Shown: one piece after another, positions 36,657-49,899 of the stretch | How the letters are laid out: every line of letters begins with the position of its first letter | Position numbering within the stretch: position 1 is the stretch's first letter | Source: Rhodothermales bacterium | GTDB taxonomy: Bacteria > Bacteroidota > Rhodothermia > Rhodothermales > VXPQ01 | DNA: 64,000 bases | Direction of reading: 5' to 3' | NCBI GenBank assembly: GCA_040904565.1 | Contig: JBBDTI010000067.1 | Location: forward strand, 26,342-90,341 | Position numbers and translations under genes: made by a program | The notes under the pieces: generated by a model | What the model was told of the DNA's origin: nothing | What the model saw: the letters and a program-made list of their open reading frames with translations, nothing else | The model's database searches: none

Positions 36657-38011
36657 TGCGGCGCGTATTCCTGCTTACGGTCGGCTTGCTGCTAACCCTC
36701 TCGTCCGCGCGAGCGCAGGACGCGCCGCCTGCCATCGATCCGCGCATCTATGACATCGTGGAATCCGTCTCGCCCGAACGGATCGAGGCGGACATCCGGA
36801 CGCTGGCCGGATTCGGGACGCGGCATACGATGTCGGACACGACGTCGGAAGCGCGTGGTATCGGTGCGGCGCGCCGGTGGCTTTTCGAGGCGTTCGAGCA
36901 GATTTCGGCGGACTGCGGGGGATGCGTGGACGTCGTCTATCAACGAACCATCGTGTCGGACGAACCGCGCATACCGGAGCCGACGGAGATCGTCAACGTG
37001 CTGGCCATACAGCGCGGCGCCATCCACCCCAATCGCCACGTCATCATGTCGGGCGACATCGACAGCCGGGCGTCGGACGTGATGGATGCGACGAGCGATG
37101 CACCCGGTGCGAACGACAATGCCTCGGGTCTGGCCGGCACGCTCGAGGCAGCCCGCGTGCTGTCGCGGCACGCGTTCGGCAGTACGATCGTCTATGCCGG
37201 TCTCTCCGGCGAGGAGCAGGGGCTCTACGGCGGTGCGCATATGGCGTCCGTTGCCGTGGAGGACGGATGGGAGATCGCCGCCGTCCTCAACAACGACATG
37301 ATCGGCAACATCGAGGGCGGCGACGGCGTGATCGATAACACCGTCTTTCGGGTCTTCTCACAGCCGTTCCCGTCGCTGGCCACGGAAGACGAGCTGCGGC
37401 GGATGCGCTACTTCGGCGGCGAGGTGGACGGTCCGTCGCGGCAGCTGGCGCGCTACGTCGATCGCGCGACGGACCGGTATCTGGCGAATCTGGATGCCAT
37501 GATGATCTACCGCCTCGACCGGTTCGGTCGCGGCGGACATCATCGTCCGTTCAACGACGCGGGATTCCCGGCCGTTCGCATCATGGAGGCGCACGAGGAC
37601 TACACGGAGCAGCATCAGGACGTACGCGTGGAGGAGGGGATCGAATACGGTGACGTGATCGAGGAGGTCGACTTCGACTTTGCAGCGCGCCTGACGGCCG
37701 TCAACGCCGCCGTCCTGGCCTCGATGGCCTGGGCGCCACCCGCTCCCTTGGACGTACGCATCGGCGGCGCCGTACAGCCGTCCACTACGCTGGCGTGGGA
37801 CGCCGTGAACGATCCGGGTCTGGCGGGCTACAGGGTCTACTGGCGGTCGACGACGGCGCCGCAGTGGGAGCACAGCCGATTCGTGCCGGCGGGCACCACC
37901 CGGCATACGCTCGAAGGCATCGTGATCGACAACTATCTCTTCGGCGTGGCGTCCGTCGGGCGAGACGGGAACGAGAGTCCCGTCTCGTTTCCGGGTGGAT
38001 TGCTGCGGTAA
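36653..38011 (+). CDS. M28 family metallopeptidase with a C-terminal Fn3-like domain
   Basis: Signal peptide; FGTRHT, APGANDNASG, GEEQGLYG, NNDMIGN, RGGHH; ATGA overlap with the SWIM gene. Confidence 0.92.
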   Translation: MMRRVFLLTVGLLLTLSSARAQDAPPAIDPRIYDIVESVSPERIEADIRTLAGFGTRHTMSDTTSEARGIGAARRWLFEAFEQISADCGGCVDVVYQRTIVSDEPRIPEPTEIVNVLAIQRGAIHPNRHVIMSGDIDSRASDVMDATSDAPGANDNASGLAGTLEAARVLSRHAFGSTIVYAGLSGEEQGLYGGAHMASVAVEDGWEIAAVLNNDMIGNIEGGDGVIDNTVFRVFSQPFPSLATEDELRRMRYFGGEVDGPSRQLARYVDRATDRYLANLDAMMIYRLDRFGRGGHHRPFNDAGFPAVRIMEAHEDYTEQHQDVRVEEGIEYGDVIEEVDFDFAARLTAVNAAVLASMAWAPPAPLDVRIGGAVQPSTTLAWDAVNDPGLAGYRVYWRSTTAPQWEHSRFVPAGTTRHTLEGIVIDNYLFGVASVGRDGNESPVSFPGGLLR

Positions 38012-40141: not shown

Positions 40142-42256
40142 ATGCCTTTGCTGAATAAATCCAAGAGACTCAAGAAGGAGCTGGGTCTCTTCGACGTCTA
40201 TGCGATCAGTACGGGAGCTATGTTCAGCTCGGGCTTTTTTCTGCTCCCCGGCCTGGCGGCGGCGCAGTCCGGTCCCTCCGTCATTCTTGCGTATCTCATT
40301 GCAGGCGTTCTGATTATTCCGGCCATGGCAAGCATGGCCGAACTCAGCACGGCCATGCCGCGTGCCGGCGGGGCCTATTATTTTCTGGATCGGAGTCTGG
40401 GCCCACTGATCGGAACGGTGGGAGGGATCGGCACCTTTCTGGCACTGGCTCTGAAGAGTGCCTTTGCGCTTGTGGGAATGGGCGCGTATCTGGCGATCTT
40501 TATTCAGATCCCCATAAAACCGCTCGCCGTTACCCTCACGATCGTCTTCCTCGTAATCAACGTCGTCGGCGCGAAGGAGACGTCAACGCTTCAGCGCGTC
40601 CTGGTGATCGTCCTGATCAGCGTCCTGGCCTTCTTCGTCGTACAGGGACTTTTTGAGATCTTTTCCATCGGTGTAGGTGAACTCGCTGATTCGCAGTTAT
40701 CACCTTTCATGCCGTTCGGCGTAAAGGGGTTGTTCGCGACGGTCGGCATGGTGTTCGTTTCCTACGCCGGCCTGACGAAGGTGGCCAGCGTATCCGAAGA
40801 AGTTCGAAATCCCGATCGGAATCTTCCGCTGGGAATGGGTCTGTCGCTTCTGACGGCTACGTTCATCTACGTCGTCGGCGTCTATATCATGGTGTCCGTT
40901 CTCAACGCGGACGAGCTGCGCGCCGATCTGACACCGGTTGCTACGGCCGGCGAACAGTTTTTTGATTGGCTGCCGGCACCTGGCGGACTCATACTGATCG
41001 TCGTCGCGGCGATTGCTGCGTTTGCATCGACGGGCAATGCTGGACTCATGTCGGCATCCCGGTATCCGCTCGCCATGTCCCGCGATCGTCTGTTGCCCGA
41101 TCGCTTCAAGGTCCTGGGACGATTCGGTACCCCGACGGCCGCCATCATCCTGACGGCCGCGCTCATGATCGTGTGCATCCTGGCGTTGGACGTCGCGGGC
41201 ATCGCGAAGCTGGCGAGCGCCTTTCAGCTCGTCATCTTCATGCTCGTCAATGTGGCCGTGATCGTGATGCGGGAAAGCCGCATCGCTTCATACGTGCCCG
41301 GCTACACGTCGCCGTTCTATCCGTGGATGCAGCTGGCTGGTGTCATCACACCTTTTTTCCTGATCGCGCTGATGGGATGGATGGCCATCCTCTTCACCGT
41401 CGGTGTTACGGCCGTTTCCGTAGTGTGGTATATTAAGTATGCTCGAAACCGTGTGTCGCGCGACGGGGCCATCTACCACTGGTTCGAGCGTCTGGGGACG
41501 CATCGCGATGAAGGGCTGGACACGGAATTGCGGGGCATCCTCAAGGAGAAGGGGCCGCGTGCGGAGGATCCCTTCGAAGAGCTCGTAGCCCGTGCCGGGG
41601 TTCTCGATCTCGACGACGTGAAAGAGTTCGGGGACATCGTCACGCGAGTGGCGCCCCTTTTCGAGCGGTGTCTGCCGATGGATGCCGAGGCCGTCCGGCT
41701 GGAATTCGCGGAGCGTACGGGCACGGGAGTTACGCCGGTCGCACCCGGGATTGCGCTGCCCCACATCCTGCTCGAAGGGATCGATCGCCCCGAGCTGGTC
41801 CTCGTTCGCGTCCAGGCAGGCGTCCCGATCGACTCGCATCCCGGCGCGGACGAGGATGCTGAAAACGTGGCCCGGGCTTTCTTCTTTCTCGTAAGCCCCA
41901 AGGAAGACCCGGGCCTGCATCTGCGCATGCTGGCCCAGATCGCCGGGCGTGCCGACGAAGATGATTTTCTGGACGAATGGCTCGACGCCGCCGATGCGAG
42001 CGAGCTCAAACAGGTCGTCGTTCACGACAAACACTTCATGAGAATCCACATAGAACCTGGCGGTCCGTCCGAATCCATGATCGGTCGTTCACTTCGGGAA
42101 GCAGACATCCCGGACAAATGCCTGGTTGCCGTCGTAAATCGTAATGGGAGTTCGATGATTCCGAGCGGCAGCACGGTCCTGCAGCAGGGTGACGTCCTTA
42201 CTGTGATCGGTGAAGAGGACGCTATCGAGGATGCGCGGCGGATGTACGATGCGTAG
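40142..42256 (+). CDS. APC-family amino acid permease fused to PTS EIIA-like and TrkA-C (RCK_C) domains
   Basis: GAMFSSGFFLLPG, ELSTAMPRAGGAY, SEEVRNPDRNLP; GIALPH and HLRMLAQIA (EIIA); IPSGSTVLQQGDVLTVIG (RCK_C). Confidence 0.9.
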   Translation: MPLLNKSKRLKKELGLFDVYAISTGAMFSSGFFLLPGLAAAQSGPSVILAYLIAGVLIIPAMASMAELSTAMPRAGGAYYFLDRSLGPLIGTVGGIGTFLALALKSAFALVGMGAYLAIFIQIPIKPLAVTLTIVFLVINVVGAKETSTLQRVLVIVLISVLAFFVVQGLFEIFSIGVGELADSQLSPFMPFGVKGLFATVGMVFVSYAGLTKVASVSEEVRNPDRNLPLGMGLSLLTATFIYVVGVYIMVSVLNADELRADLTPVATAGEQFFDWLPAPGGLILIVVAAIAAFASTGNAGLMSASRYPLAMSRDRLLPDRFKVLGRFGTPTAAIILTAALMIVCILALDVAGIAKLASAFQLVIFMLVNVAVIVMRESRIASYVPGYTSPFYPWMQLAGVITPFFLIALMGWMAILFTVGVTAVSVVWYIKYARNRVSRDGAIYHWFERLGTHRDEGLDTELRGILKEKGPRAEDPFEELVARAGVLDLDDVKEFGDIVTRVAPLFERCLPMDAEAVRLEFAERTGTGVTPVAPGIALPHILLEGIDRPELVLVRVQAGVPIDSHPGADEDAENVARAFFFLVSPKEDPGLHLRMLAQIAGRADEDDFLDEWLDAADASELKQVVVHDKHFMRIHIEPGGPSESMIGRSLREADIPDKCLVAVVNRNGSSMIPSGSTVLQQGDVLTVIGEEDAIEDARRMYDA

Positions 42257-42495
42257 GCCTGCATCTCGTGGATGCCCGCGCGGCGCGATACCGACCGATC
42301 CGGGCCGTACGTCGTTGAGGCGATCCGGATGCAATTCACAGGCGCGTCGTGCAGCTCGTCCACTCACCCCTGGGCATTGATCTCGGGGAATGGTAGACTA
42401 CCTTTCCCCCGGGCATGCCGCAGGGCGAAGTATCGAGACGTGTACGCATCCAATTATATAGAAGCAGCACCATGGAGATAGCTGGGAGCCGTGCC

Positions 42496-43295
42496 ATGAA
42501 TCGTGTCATCATTATCTTGCTTGCCGTACTGTGCGTACCGCTTCTGAGCGACGTCTACGCGCAGGATTTCGCGCTCGAGCAACTCGAATCCTCGCCGAGG
42601 CATCACGAATGGGTGAGCGTGGACGCCGGCGATCGATCCGTCCACAGCTTCGTGGCCTATCCGGAAACCGATAGCCCCACGGCCGCCATCGTCGTGATCC
42701 ACGAAAACAGGGGGTTGACGGACTGGGTTCGGAGCTTCGCCGATCAGCTCGCCGCACGTGGGTACATCGCCGTCGCACCGGATTTGCTTTCCGGCTTCGA
42801 TGCCGACCTCGAGCGGACGGCCGAATTTCCCTCTTCCGACGCCGCGCGCGATGCCATCTACCAGCTCGACCCCGATCAGGTGACGGCCGATCTTCAGGCC
42901 GTGCGCGCCTACGCCGAGAATCTTCCTTCGTCGAACGGGACGACGACGGTCATGGGTTTCTGCTGGGGGGGTCGCAGACCTTCCGCTTCGCCACCCATTC
43001 TTCGGACATCGCCGCCGCCATGGTGTTCTACGGGTCTCCGCCCGAATCGGGATTTGAGAGCATCACGGCCCCCGTCTTCGGGTTCTACGGGGAGGACGAC
43101 GAGCGTATCAACTCGACGATCCCCGAGACGGAAGAGATCATGTCCGAGTTGGACAAGATATATGAGTACGAGATCTATGATGGCGCGGGTCACGCGTACA
43201 TGCGCAGCGGCGACGACCCGGAAGGCTCGGCCGCCAATAAAGCGGCACGGGATGCGTCGTGGGAGCGGTTGGAACGGCTGCTCGCCGACCTCTGA
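42496..43295 (+). pseudogene. Dienelactone hydrolase family protein with a 1-bp frameshift in a G7 run (42965-42971); may be a sequencing error
   Basis: VIHENRGL, APDL, GFCWGG in one frame; SQTF...VFYG, YGEDD.R, YDGAGHAY in the next frame; adding one G restores a full ORF. Confidence 0.8.
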
Positions 43296-43822: not shown

Positions 43823-44743
43823 ATGCATCTACGCGAGATATACGGCGGAAGGCGTCTCGCGCTGTACGCCGCGGCCGCCGTCCTCGGTGCAATTTTCATC
43901 GCCGGGTTCTGGAATTACCACCTCGTCGACGGTTTCGGGCGGGACGTGATCGCCGCCCCCGCACTGGGTAACACGTCGGACCTGGCCGGAGCCTATCCCG
44001 ATCGGGGCATGGGCTTCGGCTTTATCTTCGCGGCCATCGCCGGGCTGGCCGCCACCTTCACGGCCTGCAACTGCGTCGTGTTCGCCATGCTGCCCGGACT
44101 CGCCTGCTCCGTCGACTCGAATCGTTCGACGAAGGGCCCATGGATGGCGCTCGGTGCGTTCGTGGCCGGCGTCACCATCGTATGCGGCATCTACGGTGCC
44201 TTTATCGGCTTGCTCGGCTCGGGTGTAGAGCTGCTCAATGCGCGCAGCGTGCGGCTTGCGCAGGCGCGGATCGTTTTCACGGGACTGGGGGTCGCCATGC
44301 TCGTGTGGGGCATGGTGGAGCTTGGATACCTGGATCGCGTCACGAACTGTTTTTCCGAGCGAGTACGCGCATTCTTCGGTAGTATTCAGACGAAGGCGGC
44401 CATCATCGGCGTGTTCGTCGGCCTTTTCGCCGTCGGGCGGCCCTTTCCCGTATTTCGAGAGTTTCTCTCCTATGCGGCGGGAGCGAACAATCCGCTTTAT
44501 GGGGCGAGCGTCATGATGGTTCAAGGCCTCGGGCAGATCCTCGTTATGGTTCTGCTGTTCGTCGTCATGGTCGCTCTCGGCGGTCGGCGCCTCATGGAAT
44601 GGTCGGCCGAAGCGCCACATAAGCCACAGCTCATGAGCGGACTCGCGCTGCTGGCCGGCGGGGCCTTCTTCGTGTTTTACTGGGGCCTTTCGTTCGCAAT
44701 GGATATCGGACGATGGGGATTCAAGTTAGGATGGTATGGATGA
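43823..44743 (+). CDS. Multi-pass membrane protein, CcdA/DsbD-TM-like
   Basis: About 7 TM segments; AATFTACNCVVFAMLPG echoes the CcdA Cys-containing first helix; RBS GGGAG. Confidence 0.7.
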   Translation: MHLREIYGGRRLALYAAAAVLGAIFIAGFWNYHLVDGFGRDVIAAPALGNTSDLAGAYPDRGMGFGFIFAAIAGLAATFTACNCVVFAMLPGLACSVDSNRSTKGPWMALGAFVAGVTIVCGIYGAFIGLLGSGVELLNARSVRLAQARIVFTGLGVAMLVWGMVELGYLDRVTNCFSERVRAFFGSIQTKAAIIGVFVGLFAVGRPFPVFREFLSYAAGANNPLYGASVMMVQGLGQILVMVLLFVVMVALGGRRLMEWSAEAPHKPQLMSGLALLAGGAFFVFYWGLSFAMDIGRWGFKLGWYG

Positions 44744-46076
44744 GGACAACATGCATCAACACACCTACGTAGAGCGGGTCGTCGATCTCCTCGACCCGTC
44801 GCTGAACATCTTTCTGAACACGACGCCGGAAGCAGCCATCGAGGCAGTCGGTTCCGGCGATCTCGAGCGCGTCCGTGCGATAGACGGACAGTTCGCGATC
44901 GCGCATCGCGACGGCAAGACCGTACGTATGGCACGTTCGATCGGCCGTCCCATGCGTTACTTTCTCGCAAAACGGGCGGAAGGCCCCTGTCTCGTGATCG
45001 CCGAGCGGATCGACGAGATCCGGCATTTTCTCGAATCGGAGGGACTCGACGATCAGTTTCATCCGTCCTACACGCGGATGGTCCCGAGCCATCACCTGGT
45101 CGAGCTCGAACTGCTCGGCTGCCCCGATCCGAGTCCGACCTATTCGCGATTTTTCAGTCCGCGGCGCAACGTCCTCGAGGCCGACACCGCGTCCATCGGC
45201 GAAACGTACGTGCGTGCGCTGGCGGGCGCCTGCGACCGGTGGCTGAATACGATTCCGTCGGACGCGCCGATCGGCGTCCTGTTTTCCGGAGGTATCGACA
45301 GCGGGTCGGTATTTCTCGTCCTCTACGATCTGCTGCTGAAGCGCGGCGAATCGCCTTCGCGATTGAAAGCCTTCACGCTTTCTGTTCAAGGGGGGACGGA
45401 CGTCGACCAGGCCTTTTCTTTTCTTGACGCGCTCGATCTAGCCCTATTTCTGGAAGTGATCGAGGTGGATCCGCGGGATGTCGATTACCGCGAGGCCATT
45501 CGAGTCATCGAAGACTATAAGCCCCTCGACGTACAGGCCGCCGCCATGACGCTGGCGCTCTGCAAGGGTATTCGGGAGCGCTATCCCGACTGGACCTATC
45601 TGGTGGATGGGGATGGAGGGGACGAAAACCTGAAAGACTATCCCATCGAGGAGAATCCCGAACTGACCGTTCGGAGCGTGCTGAACAATCTGATGCTCTA
45701 TCAGGAGGGATGGGGGGTCGACGCCGTCAAGCATTCCCTCACCTATTCGGGCGGACAGAGCCGGGGGCACGTGCGCACTTACGCGCCGGCTCGTACACAC
45801 GGCTTCGTCGGTTTCAGTCCATATGCCCTCCCCGAAGTCATCGAGGTCGCGGAGGGTATTCCGTTCGTAGATCTGACGGAATGGGATCACGAGAGGCTGT
45901 ACGCGCTCAAGGGTGAGGTCGTCTGCCAGGGCATTCATGCCGTCACTGGACTCGAAATGCCTGTCTTCGAAAAAGAGCGGTTCCAGCGCGGCGCCGTCGG
46001 GGACGGCCTGTTCGACCGGCTGTTTCCGGACCGAGAAGCCGTGTATCGCAAGACCTTCGCGTCGATCTTTGCCTGA
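44736..46076 (+). CDS. Asparagine synthetase-related ATP pyrophosphatase lacking the N-terminal Cys glutaminase
   Basis: IDGQFA..., RSIGRP, PP-loop FSGGIDS, DGDGGDE; no MCGI N-terminus. Confidence 0.85.
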   Translation: MDEDNMHQHTYVERVVDLLDPSLNIFLNTTPEAAIEAVGSGDLERVRAIDGQFAIAHRDGKTVRMARSIGRPMRYFLAKRAEGPCLVIAERIDEIRHFLESEGLDDQFHPSYTRMVPSHHLVELELLGCPDPSPTYSRFFSPRRNVLEADTASIGETYVRALAGACDRWLNTIPSDAPIGVLFSGGIDSGSVFLVLYDLLLKRGESPSRLKAFTLSVQGGTDVDQAFSFLDALDLALFLEVIEVDPRDVDYREAIRVIEDYKPLDVQAAAMTLALCKGIRERYPDWTYLVDGDGGDENLKDYPIEENPELTVRSVLNNLMLYQEGWGVDAVKHSLTYSGGQSRGHVRTYAPARTHGFVGFSPYALPEVIEVAEGIPFVDLTEWDHERLYALKGEVVCQGIHAVTGLEMPVFEKERFQRGAVGDGLFDRLFPDREAVYRKTFASIFA

Positions 46077-46081
46077 GGCAG

Positions 46082-47032
46082 GTGTTGACCATCCCGGATG
46101 TACAGATCACGGATCAGGATATTCTTTCGGCAAGGCCGCCGAAGGAAGCCGTCGATTCGCAGGTACCGTATGCCTGGCTGACCGAGCGCGAGCGGCGTGC
46201 GGACGGTCACGTCGATGACGTAGCGACCGTCTTCCTCACCAACCGGGAGTGTCCCTTCCGGTGCCTGATGTGTGATCTGTGGAGGCACACGACGGATACC
46301 ACGGTCGCCGTGGGCGACATACCGGCTCAAATCGATCATGCACTGGAGCGACTGCCGCCGGCGCGTCGGATCAAGCTGTACAACAGCGGTAATTTTTTCG
46401 ATAGAAAGGCCATTCCGCCCGCGGACTATTCGGCGATAGCGGAGCGGCTGGAAGCCTTCGAGGCGGTAATCGTCGAGAACCACCCGCGCCTGTGCGGACC
46501 GTCCTGTCTCGAATTCCGCGACCTGCTGTCAGGGCGACTTGAGATTGCGCTGGGCCTGGAGACCGCGCATCCCGAGGTCCTCGAACGGCTCAATAAGCGC
46601 ATGACGCTGGACGATTTTCGCCGGGCCGCGGACTATCTTCTCGACGCCGGCATCGCCGTCCGTACCTTCATTCTCCTCCGCCCGCCCTTTCTGTCGGAAG
46701 CGGAAGGCGTCGATTGGGCGCTTAGATCGATCGAATTCGCGTTCGACGCGGGCGTGACGTGCTGTTCCGTTATTCCGACGCGCTCAGGCAACGGCATCAT
46801 GGACCGGTTGGAACGTGAGGGACCGTTTCGTCCGCCCTCCATGTCGTCCATCGAGACCGTTCTGGAACGGGGCATCGAAATGGGTCGAGAGCGCGTGTTT
46901 ATGGACGTGTGGGACCTGGAACGCTTCTTTGACTGCGGAGAATGTGGACCCGCCCGGCGCGCGCGTCTCGAGCAGATGAACCTCACGCAGCGCATTGTGC
47001 CGCCCGTTCGCTGTTCGTGTGGCGATCGATAA
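46082..47032 (+). CDS. Radical SAM protein, RaSEA/TIGR01210-like
   Basis: CPFRCLMC, KLYNSGNFFD, IVENHP, LEIALGLETA, LLRPPFLSE, C-terminal CGEC...CSC. Confidence 0.88.
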   Translation: MLTIPDVQITDQDILSARPPKEAVDSQVPYAWLTERERRADGHVDDVATVFLTNRECPFRCLMCDLWRHTTDTTVAVGDIPAQIDHALERLPPARRIKLYNSGNFFDRKAIPPADYSAIAERLEAFEAVIVENHPRLCGPSCLEFRDLLSGRLEIALGLETAHPEVLERLNKRMTLDDFRRAADYLLDAGIAVRTFILLRPPFLSEAEGVDWALRSIEFAFDAGVTCCSVIPTRSGNGIMDRLEREGPFRPPSMSSIETVLERGIEMGRERVFMDVWDLERFFDCGECGPARRARLEQMNLTQRIVPPVRCSCGDR

Positions 47033-47036
47033 GGGC

Positions 47037-48515
47037 ATGCGCGTCGACCTGGTCATACTGGGCTCCGGATTCGGAGGCAGCGTGTGCGCGCTCATAGCCG
47101 ACCGGATCGGCCTGAAGACGGTACTCATCGACCGCGCTACGCACCCCAGATTCGCGATCGGCGAATCGTCGACCCCGATCGCCGACATGATCCTGCGCGA
47201 CCTCGCCCGGCGGTACGACCTGCCGAGGCTCGCGCCGCTGTCGACCTGGGGGAGCTGGCAGCGAACCTATCCGGATGTGCTCGGCGGCATCAAACGGGGC
47301 TTCAGCTATTTTCGCCACGAGCCGGGCGAGCGGTTCCGACCGACGCCGGGCCACGATACGGAACTGCTCGTTGCGGCCAGCGCGAGTGACGATCAGTCGG
47401 ACGCGCAGTGGTATCGCGCGGACGTAGATGCGTTCTTTGCTGAGGAAGTGCGGCGCGCCGGGATCGCGTTCATGGAGGGCGTCACGGTCGAACCCGTTCG
47501 CCGATCGAATGCATGGCACTTCCAGGGCGTCGATGTAGAGGCCGACTTCGTCATCGACGCTACCGGGGCGGGAGGAGCACTCTCGGATGTCGTCGGGGCC
47601 GGAAGCGGAGCGCCGATGCAAACCCGAACGCGGGCCGTCTTCTCGCATTTTACGGGAGTTCGGCGCTGGCTCGATGCGCTCGCAGACCTCGGTGCGCGCG
47701 TTGGCGACTACCCGTTCGATCCGGATCACGCCGCGCTTCACCATGTGTTCGACAATGGGTGGATGTGGATGCTGCGGTTCGAGAATGAGGTCGTCAGTGC
47801 CGGACTCGTGCTGGATGAGTCCAAGCGTCAAAAGTCGCATTTCGCAGATACGGTTCCCAGGGCCGTGTGGGACGAACACCTCGCCCGTCATCCATCGATC
47901 CGCGATCTGTTCGCCGGGGCACGGCAGGCGTCGTCACCCGGTCGCCTCATCGCGACGCGGAGGTTGCAGCGGCGCGTCGCGCAGGCGGCTGGACCGACCT
48001 GGGCGATGCTGCCGCATACGGCCGGGTTCGTGGACCCGCTCCACAGCTCGGGCATCGCACACACGCTCAGTGGCGTGGAGCGATTGATGGCCGCCCTGGA
48101 GAGCCATTGGGGACGCCCCACGCTGCGTGAGGCCATGGATCGATACCAGGGATCTGTCCTCCAGGAGATCGAGTGGATCGATCAGCTCGTCTCCCTGTGT
48201 TACGGCTCCCTGGATTCGTTCGAACGGTGGACGGCTAGCACGATGCCCTACTTTGCCGCGGCGACGACGTACGAGCGCGAGCGCGTCGACGGTCGGCATC
48301 TCGACCGCCTGTTTCTCCTGGCCGACGAGGATCGGTTGCTCGACGTCGTGCGGGGTGCGCATCTTCGGCTGGAGCAAAAGGTGGCCGACTACGCGTCCTG
48401 GCTGGCGGACATGCTGGAACCGTACAACCGCGTCGGCCTCTTCCGTCCGCGTATCCCGAACATGTACGAACACACGGCGGCATATAAGGCGTCTCCGGGT
48501 CGAGCCGGCGCATAG
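47037..48515 (+). CDS. Flavin-dependent halogenase, PrnC-like
   Basis: GSGFGG, HPRFAIGESS, GIKRGF (catalytic Lys position), YRADVDAF, DATG, GWMWMLRF (WxWxIP-like), GFVDPLHSSG. Confidence 0.85.
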   Translation: MRVDLVILGSGFGGSVCALIADRIGLKTVLIDRATHPRFAIGESSTPIADMILRDLARRYDLPRLAPLSTWGSWQRTYPDVLGGIKRGFSYFRHEPGERFRPTPGHDTELLVAASASDDQSDAQWYRADVDAFFAEEVRRAGIAFMEGVTVEPVRRSNAWHFQGVDVEADFVIDATGAGGALSDVVGAGSGAPMQTRTRAVFSHFTGVRRWLDALADLGARVGDYPFDPDHAALHHVFDNGWMWMLRFENEVVSAGLVLDESKRQKSHFADTVPRAVWDEHLARHPSIRDLFAGARQASSPGRLIATRRLQRRVAQAAGPTWAMLPHTAGFVDPLHSSGIAHTLSGVERLMAALESHWGRPTLREAMDRYQGSVLQEIEWIDQLVSLCYGSLDSFERWTASTMPYFAAATTYERERVDGRHLDRLFLLADEDRLLDVVRGAHLRLEQKVADYASWLADMLEPYNRVGLFRPRIPNMYEHTAAYKASPGRAGA

Positions 48516-48613: not shown

Positions 48614-49708
48614 TCAGAGCCAGCCCCGTCGACGAAAAAACACGAACATCGTGAGTGCGACGCCGGACATGAGAGTGAGCGCGAATGGATAGCCGAAATA
48701 CCACTCCAGTTCGGGCATATTCAGGGGGGAGGCGGCGGGGTCGAAGTTCATTCCGTAAACGGACGCGATGAACGACAGCGGGAGGAAGAACGTCGCAATG
48801 ACGGCCAGCATTTTCATGATGTCGTTCATGCGGAAGGAGAGAGCCGACAGATGGATGTCGCCCAGAGAACTCAGGATCTCGCGTGCCGCCTCCGTCATCT
48901 CCGCCGCTCGGATGGCGTGATCGTAGACGTCGCGGAAGTAATGGTCCGTTTCGGCCGCAATGAATGGCAGTTCGCTGCGTTCGAGGGCGGATGCCACGTC
49001 GCGCAGTGGCCAGATCGATCGACGAAGCGTCATGATCCGACGCCGCATCGCGTTGATCTGCTGCATCATCTCCGGATGCGGTTCCGATGCCACCACGTCT
49101 TCCAGCGCTTCGATGTGCTCGCCGAGCCCTTCCAGCACCGCCATATACTGGTCGACGATGACGTCGATCAGGGCGTAGGCAAGGTAGTCCGCTCCCGATC
49201 GTCGGATGCGGCCGCGATGTTCGCGCAGCCAGGCGCGAACCGGTTCGAACGCATCGCCTTCCATCGTCTCCTGAAACGAGATGACGAACCCTTTTCCGAA
49301 GATCAGGCTCACCTGTTCGGGATGCAGTTCCGCCGATTCGTGATCGTAGTGCAACATCTGAAGAACGACGAAGACATATCCTTCGTATTCCTCCATCTTG
49401 GGTCGTTGGTGCGTATGGAGGATATCCTCCAGGGTGAGGTCGTGTACGCCGAAGCTCGTGCCGATCTCGCGGAGGATCTCCACGTCGTGAATGCCGTCAA
49501 CGTCAATCCACGAAACGGTATCCGCGTCGCGGTATGCACCGACCGCGGCGCCGGTTTCGAGTTCGGTCTCCTCGAGATGCTGGTCGTCGTAATCGTAGAC
49601 GCGAATGCGAACGGCTTCGGACGAAGCCGGACCCGTGTAATGAAGCGTTCCGGGTGGCAGACTGCGGGCAGTCGGATTCGTCTGACGAATGCGTTTGAAG
49701 TTGAGCAC
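48614..49708 (-). CDS. corA: Magnesium/cobalt transporter CorA
   Basis: PPGTL.Y.G, LEDI...QRPK, EQVS, YFRDVYDH, MNDIMK.L, YGMNF, MPEL; AGGAGG before GTG at 49708. Confidence 0.96.
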   Translation of the reverse strand: MLNFKRIRQTNPTARSLPPGTLHYTGPASSEAVRIRVYDYDDQHLEETELETGAAVGAYRDADTVSWIDVDGIHDVEILREIGTSFGVHDLTLEDILHTHQRPKMEEYEGYVFVVLQMLHYDHESAELHPEQVSLIFGKGFVISFQETMEGDAFEPVRAWLREHRGRIRRSGADYLAYALIDVIVDQYMAVLEGLGEHIEALEDVVASEPHPEMMQQINAMRRRIMTLRRSIWPLRDVASALERSELPFIAAETDHYFRDVYDHAIRAAEMTEAAREILSSLGDIHLSALSFRMNDIMKMLAVIATFFLPLSFIASVYGMNFDPAASPLNMPELEWYFGYPFALTLMSGVALTMFVFFRRRGWL

Positions 49709-49832
49709 GTCTGATGGCCTCCTGTATCGTGGTCGATGACGTCGGTCTGCGGTGAAAGGTTGGATCCCGCGCTTTCCATGGAACACGCGCGCAGGGGGGC
49801 TCAGTTTCGCAACGTCTTCCATTCCGCAGCGC

Positions 49833-49899
49833 CGAACCACCCCGCGGGGCAACACGATACCGGAGCGCCGAACCATCCCGCTGCAGCGAACCACCCCGC
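49833..49899. repeat. Three copies of CGAACCAYCCCGC on an 18-bp register
   Basis: Copies at 49833-49845, 49869-49881 and 49887-49899. Confidence 0.75.

Follow-up and report, generated by a model that had tools for sequence, protein, structure and literature searches.

What joins four closely spaced genes in the genome of a Rhodothermales bacterium, and what could their products make together? The genes, here called A to D, lie in a 64,000-nucleotide stretch of contig JBBDTI010000067.1 (assembly GCA_040904565.1, positions 26,342 to 90,341), which is referred to below as the window. They encode a polytopic membrane protein (A), an ATP pyrophosphatase or ligase of the AsnB superfamily (B), a radical SAM (S-adenosylmethionine) enzyme related to archaeal RaSEA (C) and a flavin-dependent halogenase-type protein (D). 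An earlier note on this DNA, made from its letters alone, had proposed that all four form one biosynthetic system; the list of open reading frames (ORFs) places them on the same strand and at the positions that it gave. Our analysis leads to a smaller unit. B and C are an obligate pair and D is their frequent third member, together making up a self-contained, co-inherited module, and A is a local neighbour in this lineage and not a part of the module.

The evidence for the module comes from its recurrence. A scan of contigs from one genome per species with a pattern derived from B yielded at least 599 candidate stretches, at least 559 of which were confirmed as B loci. The locus counts and the tree described here are based on the best 80 of these at least 559 loci, which belong mostly to Planctomycetota and also to Rhodothermales, Chitinophagaceae, Sphingobacteriaceae, one Gemmatimonadota and one Acidobacteria. 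By tblastn, B was found in 80 of the 80 loci, C in 52, D in 41 and A in none. Of the 72 loci whose sequence extends 1.1 kb or more beyond B, 48 have C directly downstream (including L020, where the two genes overlap by 4 nucleotides (nt)). D directly follows C in 30 of the 37 loci that have room for it, lies elsewhere in the locus in three and is absent from it in four.

Whole genomes give a similar picture. Strong matches to B were obtained in 11 of 41 Rhodothermales genomes, C was found in the identical 11, and D was found in 9 of them. Among 61 Pirellulales genomes, B was present in 6, C in the same 6 and D in 5 of these, and all three were absent from the other 55. Enzymes that depend on one another would be expected to show this presence pattern of B and C. 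Several genomes (e.g., G081 and G097) carry B, C and D on separate contigs, and when we considered five Planctomycete genomes in which B stands alone, C and D were present elsewhere in four and adjacent in three. As both the adjacency of B, C and D and their co-occurrence in genomes recur across phyla, the arrangement is more than chance, and we regard the module as very probably real. The earlier note had named co-occurrence in other genomes as the test of its own proposal; by adjacency and by the order-level samples, the outcome is favourable for B, C and D.

No further gene travels with the trio. When all ORFs of at least 80 amino acids (aa) were clustered all against all, no other family exceeded 16 of the 80 loci, and the neighbour families that do recur are lineage-level synteny. 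The same clustering showed no leader peptidase, no recognition element (RRE) and no target-protein gene recurring beside the module, and in the loci examined no small ORF that could be a precursor peptide recurs within 1.5 kb of it, outside shadow frames. In these respects the module is unlike the clusters for lasso peptides and other peptides that are ribosomally synthesised and then post-translationally modified (RiPPs). Genes for non-ribosomal peptide synthetases (NRPSs) or polyketide synthases (PKSs) are likewise absent among the neighbours in the window, as had been remarked before, and none recurs in the 80 loci. Read by eye, a number of Planctomycetaceae B genes without C or D nearby (L041, L048, L049, L056, L068 and others) stand just downstream of a phosphoglucosamine/phosphomannomutase-like gene, which is probably also lineage synteny.

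A quick tree of B was built from 79 recovered sequences and the window (L030 has no complete B ORF). The window falls in a well-supported group of six Rhodothermota, one Bacteroidota, one Gemmatimonadota and one Acidobacteriota, and Rhodothermota occupy at least two separate places in the tree. This split makes some transfer between phyla likely. A collection of plasmids gave no match to B (tblastn, 1e-20). Four loci (L053, L056, L064 and L068) come from metagenome-assembled genomes labelled 'Candidatus Kuenenia sp.', and their B nests among Planctomycetaceae; these bins may be mislabelled or mixed. Searches for gene fusions among long proteins returned 6 and 5 proteins, and none of the three that were inspected was accepted. 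In P0127 (B and C) and P0130 (C and D), unrelated residues take the place of the first protein's end, as after a frameshift, and the 445-aa N-terminal extension of P0121 is of low complexity and has the look of an ORF called too long.

What, then, do the three enzymes do? Judged by its sequence and its structural model, B is an AsnB-fold adenylating enzyme with a degenerate N-terminal domain and without the Cys1 glutaminase, as the earlier note had read it. It matches Pfam Asn_synthase (2.5e-11) and does not reach the cut-off of the AsnB equivalog TIGR01536 (50.4 bits, cut-off 267.1). The PP-loop motif SGGIDS is conserved across 38 sequences, with S184, G186, D188 and S189 invariant, G185 nearly so and I187 variable, and in the DGDGGDEN motif D291, G292, G294, D296, E297 and N298 are invariant. 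The N-terminal Cys1 is absent in B and in 37 homologues, which share the consensus start x-M-x4-YVERL. An AlphaFold2 model of B (pLDDT 86.9) had as its best fold matches in Foldseek beta-lactam synthetase (TMq 0.64), the human and Escherichia coli asparagine synthetases, TsnB9 and carbapenam synthetase. These matches span about 450 columns, with E-values of 1e-13 to 1e-14 for beta-lactam synthetase and asparagine synthetase. B thus shares with beta-lactam synthetase, carbapenam synthetase and TsnB9 a two-domain fold (TMq 0.56-0.65), the PP-loop and the lack of a catalytic Cys1. Unlike in these enzymes, its N-terminal domain is shorter; its sequence resembles that of AsnB-fold enzymes in the PP-loop region alone (residues 168-302), and no known enzyme of this kind has a radical SAM enzyme of the family of C as its partner. 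B is likely a glutaminase-independent carboxylate-amine ligase.

Within its own family B is strongly conserved, with 63-74% identity to the window in those 36 of 37 aligned homologues that belong to the best 80 loci, and 59% in one further relative. It does not stand in for asparagine synthetase together with C: the genome has two canonical AsnB genes (435 and 412 bits, above the cut-off), and canonical AsnB is present in relatives both with and without B and C. In the ESM Atlas, B led only to clusters automatically named 'asparagine synthase'. A complex prediction for B with C (score 0.00, mark 0.32) counts neither for nor against their interaction.

C matches Pfam Radical_SAM and, over positions 5-295 of the 313 in the model, the RaSEA family TIGR01210 (5e-36). 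Its score of 124.5 bits lies below the cut-off of 212.15, which 3 of 14 control genomes exceeded. RaSEA is nevertheless the sole family-level match of C among 18,950 NCBIfam models, the next family scoring 17.9 bits, and the previous description of C as a RaSEA-like radical SAM enzyme is borne out. The genome has no second TIGR01210-like gene. Across 32 sequences, the cysteines of the CxxxCxxC radical SAM motif (C57, C61 and C64) are invariant, and three C-terminal cysteines (C285, C288 and C311) are each at least 90% conserved. The AlphaFold2 model of C (pLDDT 94.9) shows a generic radical SAM barrel that is nearest to Elp3 and the pyruvate formate-lyase activating enzyme in a fold search, which pointed to no particular function. 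Aligned homologues of C are 43-71% identical to the window.

By its sequence, D is a halogenase-type flavoprotein of the PltM/CtcP kind that has kept the catalytic lysine. It matches Pfam Trp_halogenase, and a phmmer comparison with solved structures gave PltM (9.8e-44), CtcP/tetracycline 7-halogenase (3.3e-40) and CmlS (8.7e-15). The alignments to PltM and CtcP, which act on free phenolic substrates, cover about 400 residues and contain the GxGxxG motif; the one to PltM reaches residue 395 of 502, about 25 residues into the helical C-terminal region 390-502. W242 and W244 of D are invariant in 25 of 25 homologues, whose identity to the window is 36-56%. So is K86, which aligns with Lys87 of PltM, a catalytic residue whose K87A variant is described as inactive (PMC6424973). 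Unlike PltM and CtcP, D stands with a ligase and a radical SAM enzyme as its genomic partners, not with a polyketide pathway, and the substrate-contact residue Glu49 of PltM aligns with Ile48 of D (counted by hand, allowing for a 20-residue tag offset). The earlier note had compared D to PrnC. Its halogenase-type assignment stands, with PltM and CtcP as the nearest solved structures; PrnC was not among the solved chains compared.

From the families, motifs, adjacency and co-inheritance observed above, we infer a sequence of chemical steps, their order and the nature of their substrate. B would adenylate a carboxylate with ATP and join it to an amine, and as B has no glutaminase, this amine would be other than glutamine-derived ammonia. 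C would perform radical SAM chemistry on the adduct made by B and, by analogy with RaSEA, may break a C-N bond on the donor's side, so that a primary amide remains. D would place a halogen on an electron-rich aromatic ring in that molecule. As no substrate-supplying genes travel with the module, it probably tailors a substrate already made by the cell. B and C are acidic (median isoelectric points 5.5 and 5.7), which is a weak pointer away from nucleic acids, and we slightly favour a small molecule over a macromolecule as the substrate. We also lean a little towards D being a halogenating and not a hydroxylating enzyme. RaSEA-like action of C on the product of B is possible, if doubtful, and the scheme as a whole, from ligation by B through RaSEA-like processing by C to halogenation by D, is offered tentatively.

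RaSEA cleaves a bond of a lysine adduct in Euryarchaeota. According to a published account, ArcS adds lysine to preQ0 and RaSEA turns the adduct into archaeosine, the two proteins act as a complex, and their nitrogen source is lysine and not NH4+, Asn or Gln (PMC11298593). The module resembles this system in that a TIGR01210-type enzyme, matching the model over nearly its full length, is strictly paired with an enzyme that would attach an amine. It differs from it in its bacterial hosts, in the missing tRNA or 7-deazaguanine context, in the attached halogenase-type third enzyme, in the score of C (124.5 against 212 bits) and in the partner of C, which is an AsnB-fold ATP pyrophosphatase and not an ArcTGT-like ArcS. 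A bolder version of our scheme, which we consider unlikely to hold in full, would see in B and C a bacterial form of the ArcS-RaSEA logic, moved from a tRNA nitrile to a carboxylate. An amino acid's sacrificial amine, e.g., the epsilon-amine of lysine, would be joined to an adenylated carboxylate by B and its donor part cut away by C through radical chemistry, giving a primary amide without glutamine or ammonia. With D, the product might be a halogenated aromatic carboxamide that would occur widely in Planctomycetota, Rhodothermales and neighbouring phyla and escape standard cluster finders.

A number of observations weigh against the scheme that we propose. The likeness to archaea is one of logic only, as C scores below the RaSEA cut-off and B is unrelated to ArcS. 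Flavin-dependent halogenases carry a WxWxIP motif, and the 'IP' of this motif is Leu-Arg in D of the window and Leu or Ile followed by Arg, Gly, His or Asn in its homologues, a further difference from PltM and CtcP. D was not found in 2 of the 11 Rhodothermales and 1 of the 6 Pirellulales genomes with B and C; as D is missing there, B and C must make something useful alone, and halogenation is inessential to them. G043, the fifth of the Planctomycete genomes with a lone B, gave no C and only weak matches to D. In G006 (89% complete), the edge of a contig carries a strong match to D, and B and C are lacking. The sampled genomes are related, which means that the co-occurrence counts are not independent events, and the four public runs listed for the locus are all DNA runs, with no RNA run among them. 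Finally, D has weak NCBIfam matches to the hydroxylases QhpG (1.7e-16), GoxB (1.1e-9) and LodB (2.4e-4), and a macromolecular substrate would also be in keeping with the very strong conservation of B. These last two points favour a reading in which the trio modifies a protein or peptide encoded elsewhere, in cofactor maturation or in a RiPP-like manner. In this reading a carboxylate would be amidated or cyclised by B and a side-chain bond formed or broken by C, and a Trp or Tyr would undergo hydroxylation or halogenation by D, in the way that QhpG acts on QhpC. QhpG, LodB and GoxB mature protein-derived quinone cofactors and are of the same fold class as D. According to one study, QhpG has a halogenase-like fold, acts on protein-bound Trp and likewise operates together with a radical SAM enzyme, QhpD (PMC7876137). 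The absence of substrate-supplying genes from the module is compatible with such a target as well. Against it, D is far nearer to PltM and CtcP, with their free substrates, than to QhpG-type enzymes, scoring 60 against a cut-off of 240 and 38 against 400 for families of the QhpG/LodB/GoxB type, and no gene like QhpC, LodA or GoxA stands near the module. The loci also hold none of the conserved small ORFs, leader peptidases, RREs or target-protein genes described above as sought beside the module. We consider a protein target rather unlikely.

The same macromolecular line of thought could lead to a nucleobase of tRNA, rRNA or DNA, with B as a PP-loop enzyme that activates the base and C as the RaSEA-like partner in a bacterial counterpart of archaeosine synthesis. 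Several routes of RNA modification rely on PP-loop enzymes to activate the base, RaSEA is the one family that C matches, and some Planctomycetaceae B genes lie beside an ORF that, read by eye, is RNA methyltransferase-like. The acidity of B and C speaks against this possibility, as do the fold of B, which is that of AsnB and beta-lactam synthetase and not of TilS or QueC, and the absence of recurring transglycosylase or 7-deazaguanine genes beside the module; in addition, no PltM-type halogenase is known to us to use nucleic acid as a substrate. This makes modification of a nucleobase very improbable. Improbable, too, is the four-gene system of the earlier note, in which A exports the product or supplies electrons. 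In the window, A and B overlap by 8 nt or lie at most 7 nt apart, and one contig of a public run covers all of A to D; G003, the nearest relative, has directly upstream of B a fragment corresponding to the last 21 residues of A, with the full-length A on another contig. Yet A does not stand beside B in any of the 80 loci, all from other species. Among the 41 Rhodothermales relatives, A was found in five, with different neighbours in each genome: G001 has A and gave no B, C or D, and in G039 A is 35 kb away from the module. Only one of five B-C-D genomes from other phyla has A, linked to the module or not. A does not travel with B, C and D; the four-gene system is not conserved, and a role of A as a conserved partner in export or electron supply has no support. 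That B, C and D are chance neighbours with unrelated functions has a negligible probability, given that their adjacency recurs across phyla and that the presence and absence of B and C are identical in two genome samples.

The genes of the locus are listed in Table 1. The start of D at the listed ATG fits the N-termini of 24 homologues. The spacing of the four genes agrees with that claimed before (A/B overlap of 8 nt, B/C gap of 5 nt and C/D gap of 4 nt in the ORF list), with the reservation that the first value depends on the start of B. In the homologue alignment, B proteins start near the second ATG, and if this is the true start, A and B do not overlap and are separated by 7 nt.

Table 1. 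Features of the module and its surroundings in the window.
Feature	Position	Strand	Remarks
Dienelactone hydrolase gene, two frames	42415-43295	+	Pfam DLH on both pieces
A (polytopic membrane protein, DsbD_2-like)	43823-44743	+	306 aa; local neighbour, outside the conserved module
B (AsnB-superfamily ATP pyrophosphatase/ligase)	44736-46076	+	446 aa; alternative start 44751
C (radical SAM enzyme, bacterial family related to archaeal RaSEA)	46082-47032	+	316 aa
D (flavin-dependent halogenase-type protein)	47037-48515	+	492 aa from ATG; longest ORF from TTG 46995
corA (Mg/Co transporter)	48614-49894	-	Convergent, bounds the cluster; Pfam CorA 2.2e-67; TIGR00383 315 bits, above cut-off

The earlier note had read A as a CcdA-like membrane protein. 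A scores 31.8 bits for Pfam DsbD_2 (cut-off 24.9) and 26.7 bits for DsbD_TM, below the cut-off of 27.1. Its cysteines C82 and C84 (in a C-x-C arrangement), C95 and C121 are invariant in five homologues. It belongs to a well-conserved family, with 66-77% identity in four relatives and an invariant TFTACNCVVFAM segment (43823-44743; L109-L112).

The ORF list, Pfam and NCBIfam agree on the convergent corA that had been noted downstream, and no corA was found beside the module in the other loci (tblastn, the same 80). The upstream 'remnant' of the earlier note is indeed a gene read in two frames, but it may be intact. Its frame breaks at a run of seven G (42965-42971), with the second frame open from 42966. 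The contigs of three of four public runs (DNA runs of a single study, two of them a possible source of this DNA) have eight G here, and the one extra G would bring both halves into one frame, through the GFCWGG motif. The split dienelactone hydrolase gene may thus be an intact gene with an assembly error (a homopolymer miscall) or a homopolymer of variable length. The contig that spans A to D comes from one of these runs (X1), which may be the source of the assembly. The GC content is 0.60-0.66 across the region, with no step at its edges. Further upstream, 42256 being its last position, an ORF that begins at 40142 encodes a 704-aa protein with amino-acid permease, PTS EIIA-2 and TrkA-C domains (Pfam), an unusual regulatory tail for a transporter. 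No riboswitch or other RNA leader was detected between positions 38000 and 52000 (E up to 0.1), and a scan for RNAs in eight related loci returned two tRNAs only. A defence system was considered as well and set aside, PADLOC giving no match for A to D.

All three members of the module come from known superfamilies, and it is the pairing of B with C that is without a characterised counterpart. In a literature search with most subscription journals and supplements outside its reach, we found no description of the B-C-D trio or of bacterial RaSEA-like enzymes, and no described pathway with this combination of enzymes, in line with what the earlier note had stated. The module is a small, widespread tailoring module, present in hundreds of species, many of them from marine and sediment metagenomes, and it bears no NRPS, PKS or RiPP hallmark. 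As a clean and small gene set it is open to testing in cultured carriers, which include Novipirellula rosea JCM 17759, Maioricimonas sp. JC845, Rhodocaloribacter litoris and Salinibacter sp. 10B. If our reading is true, it would give a first function to the bacterial RaSEA branch of radical SAM enzymes and to a deeply diverged branch of AsnB. It would also mean that the use of an amino acid as a nitrogen donor, later removed by radical chemistry, extends beyond archaeal tRNA. The product of the module, possibly halogenated, would then be an overlooked common metabolite or modification.

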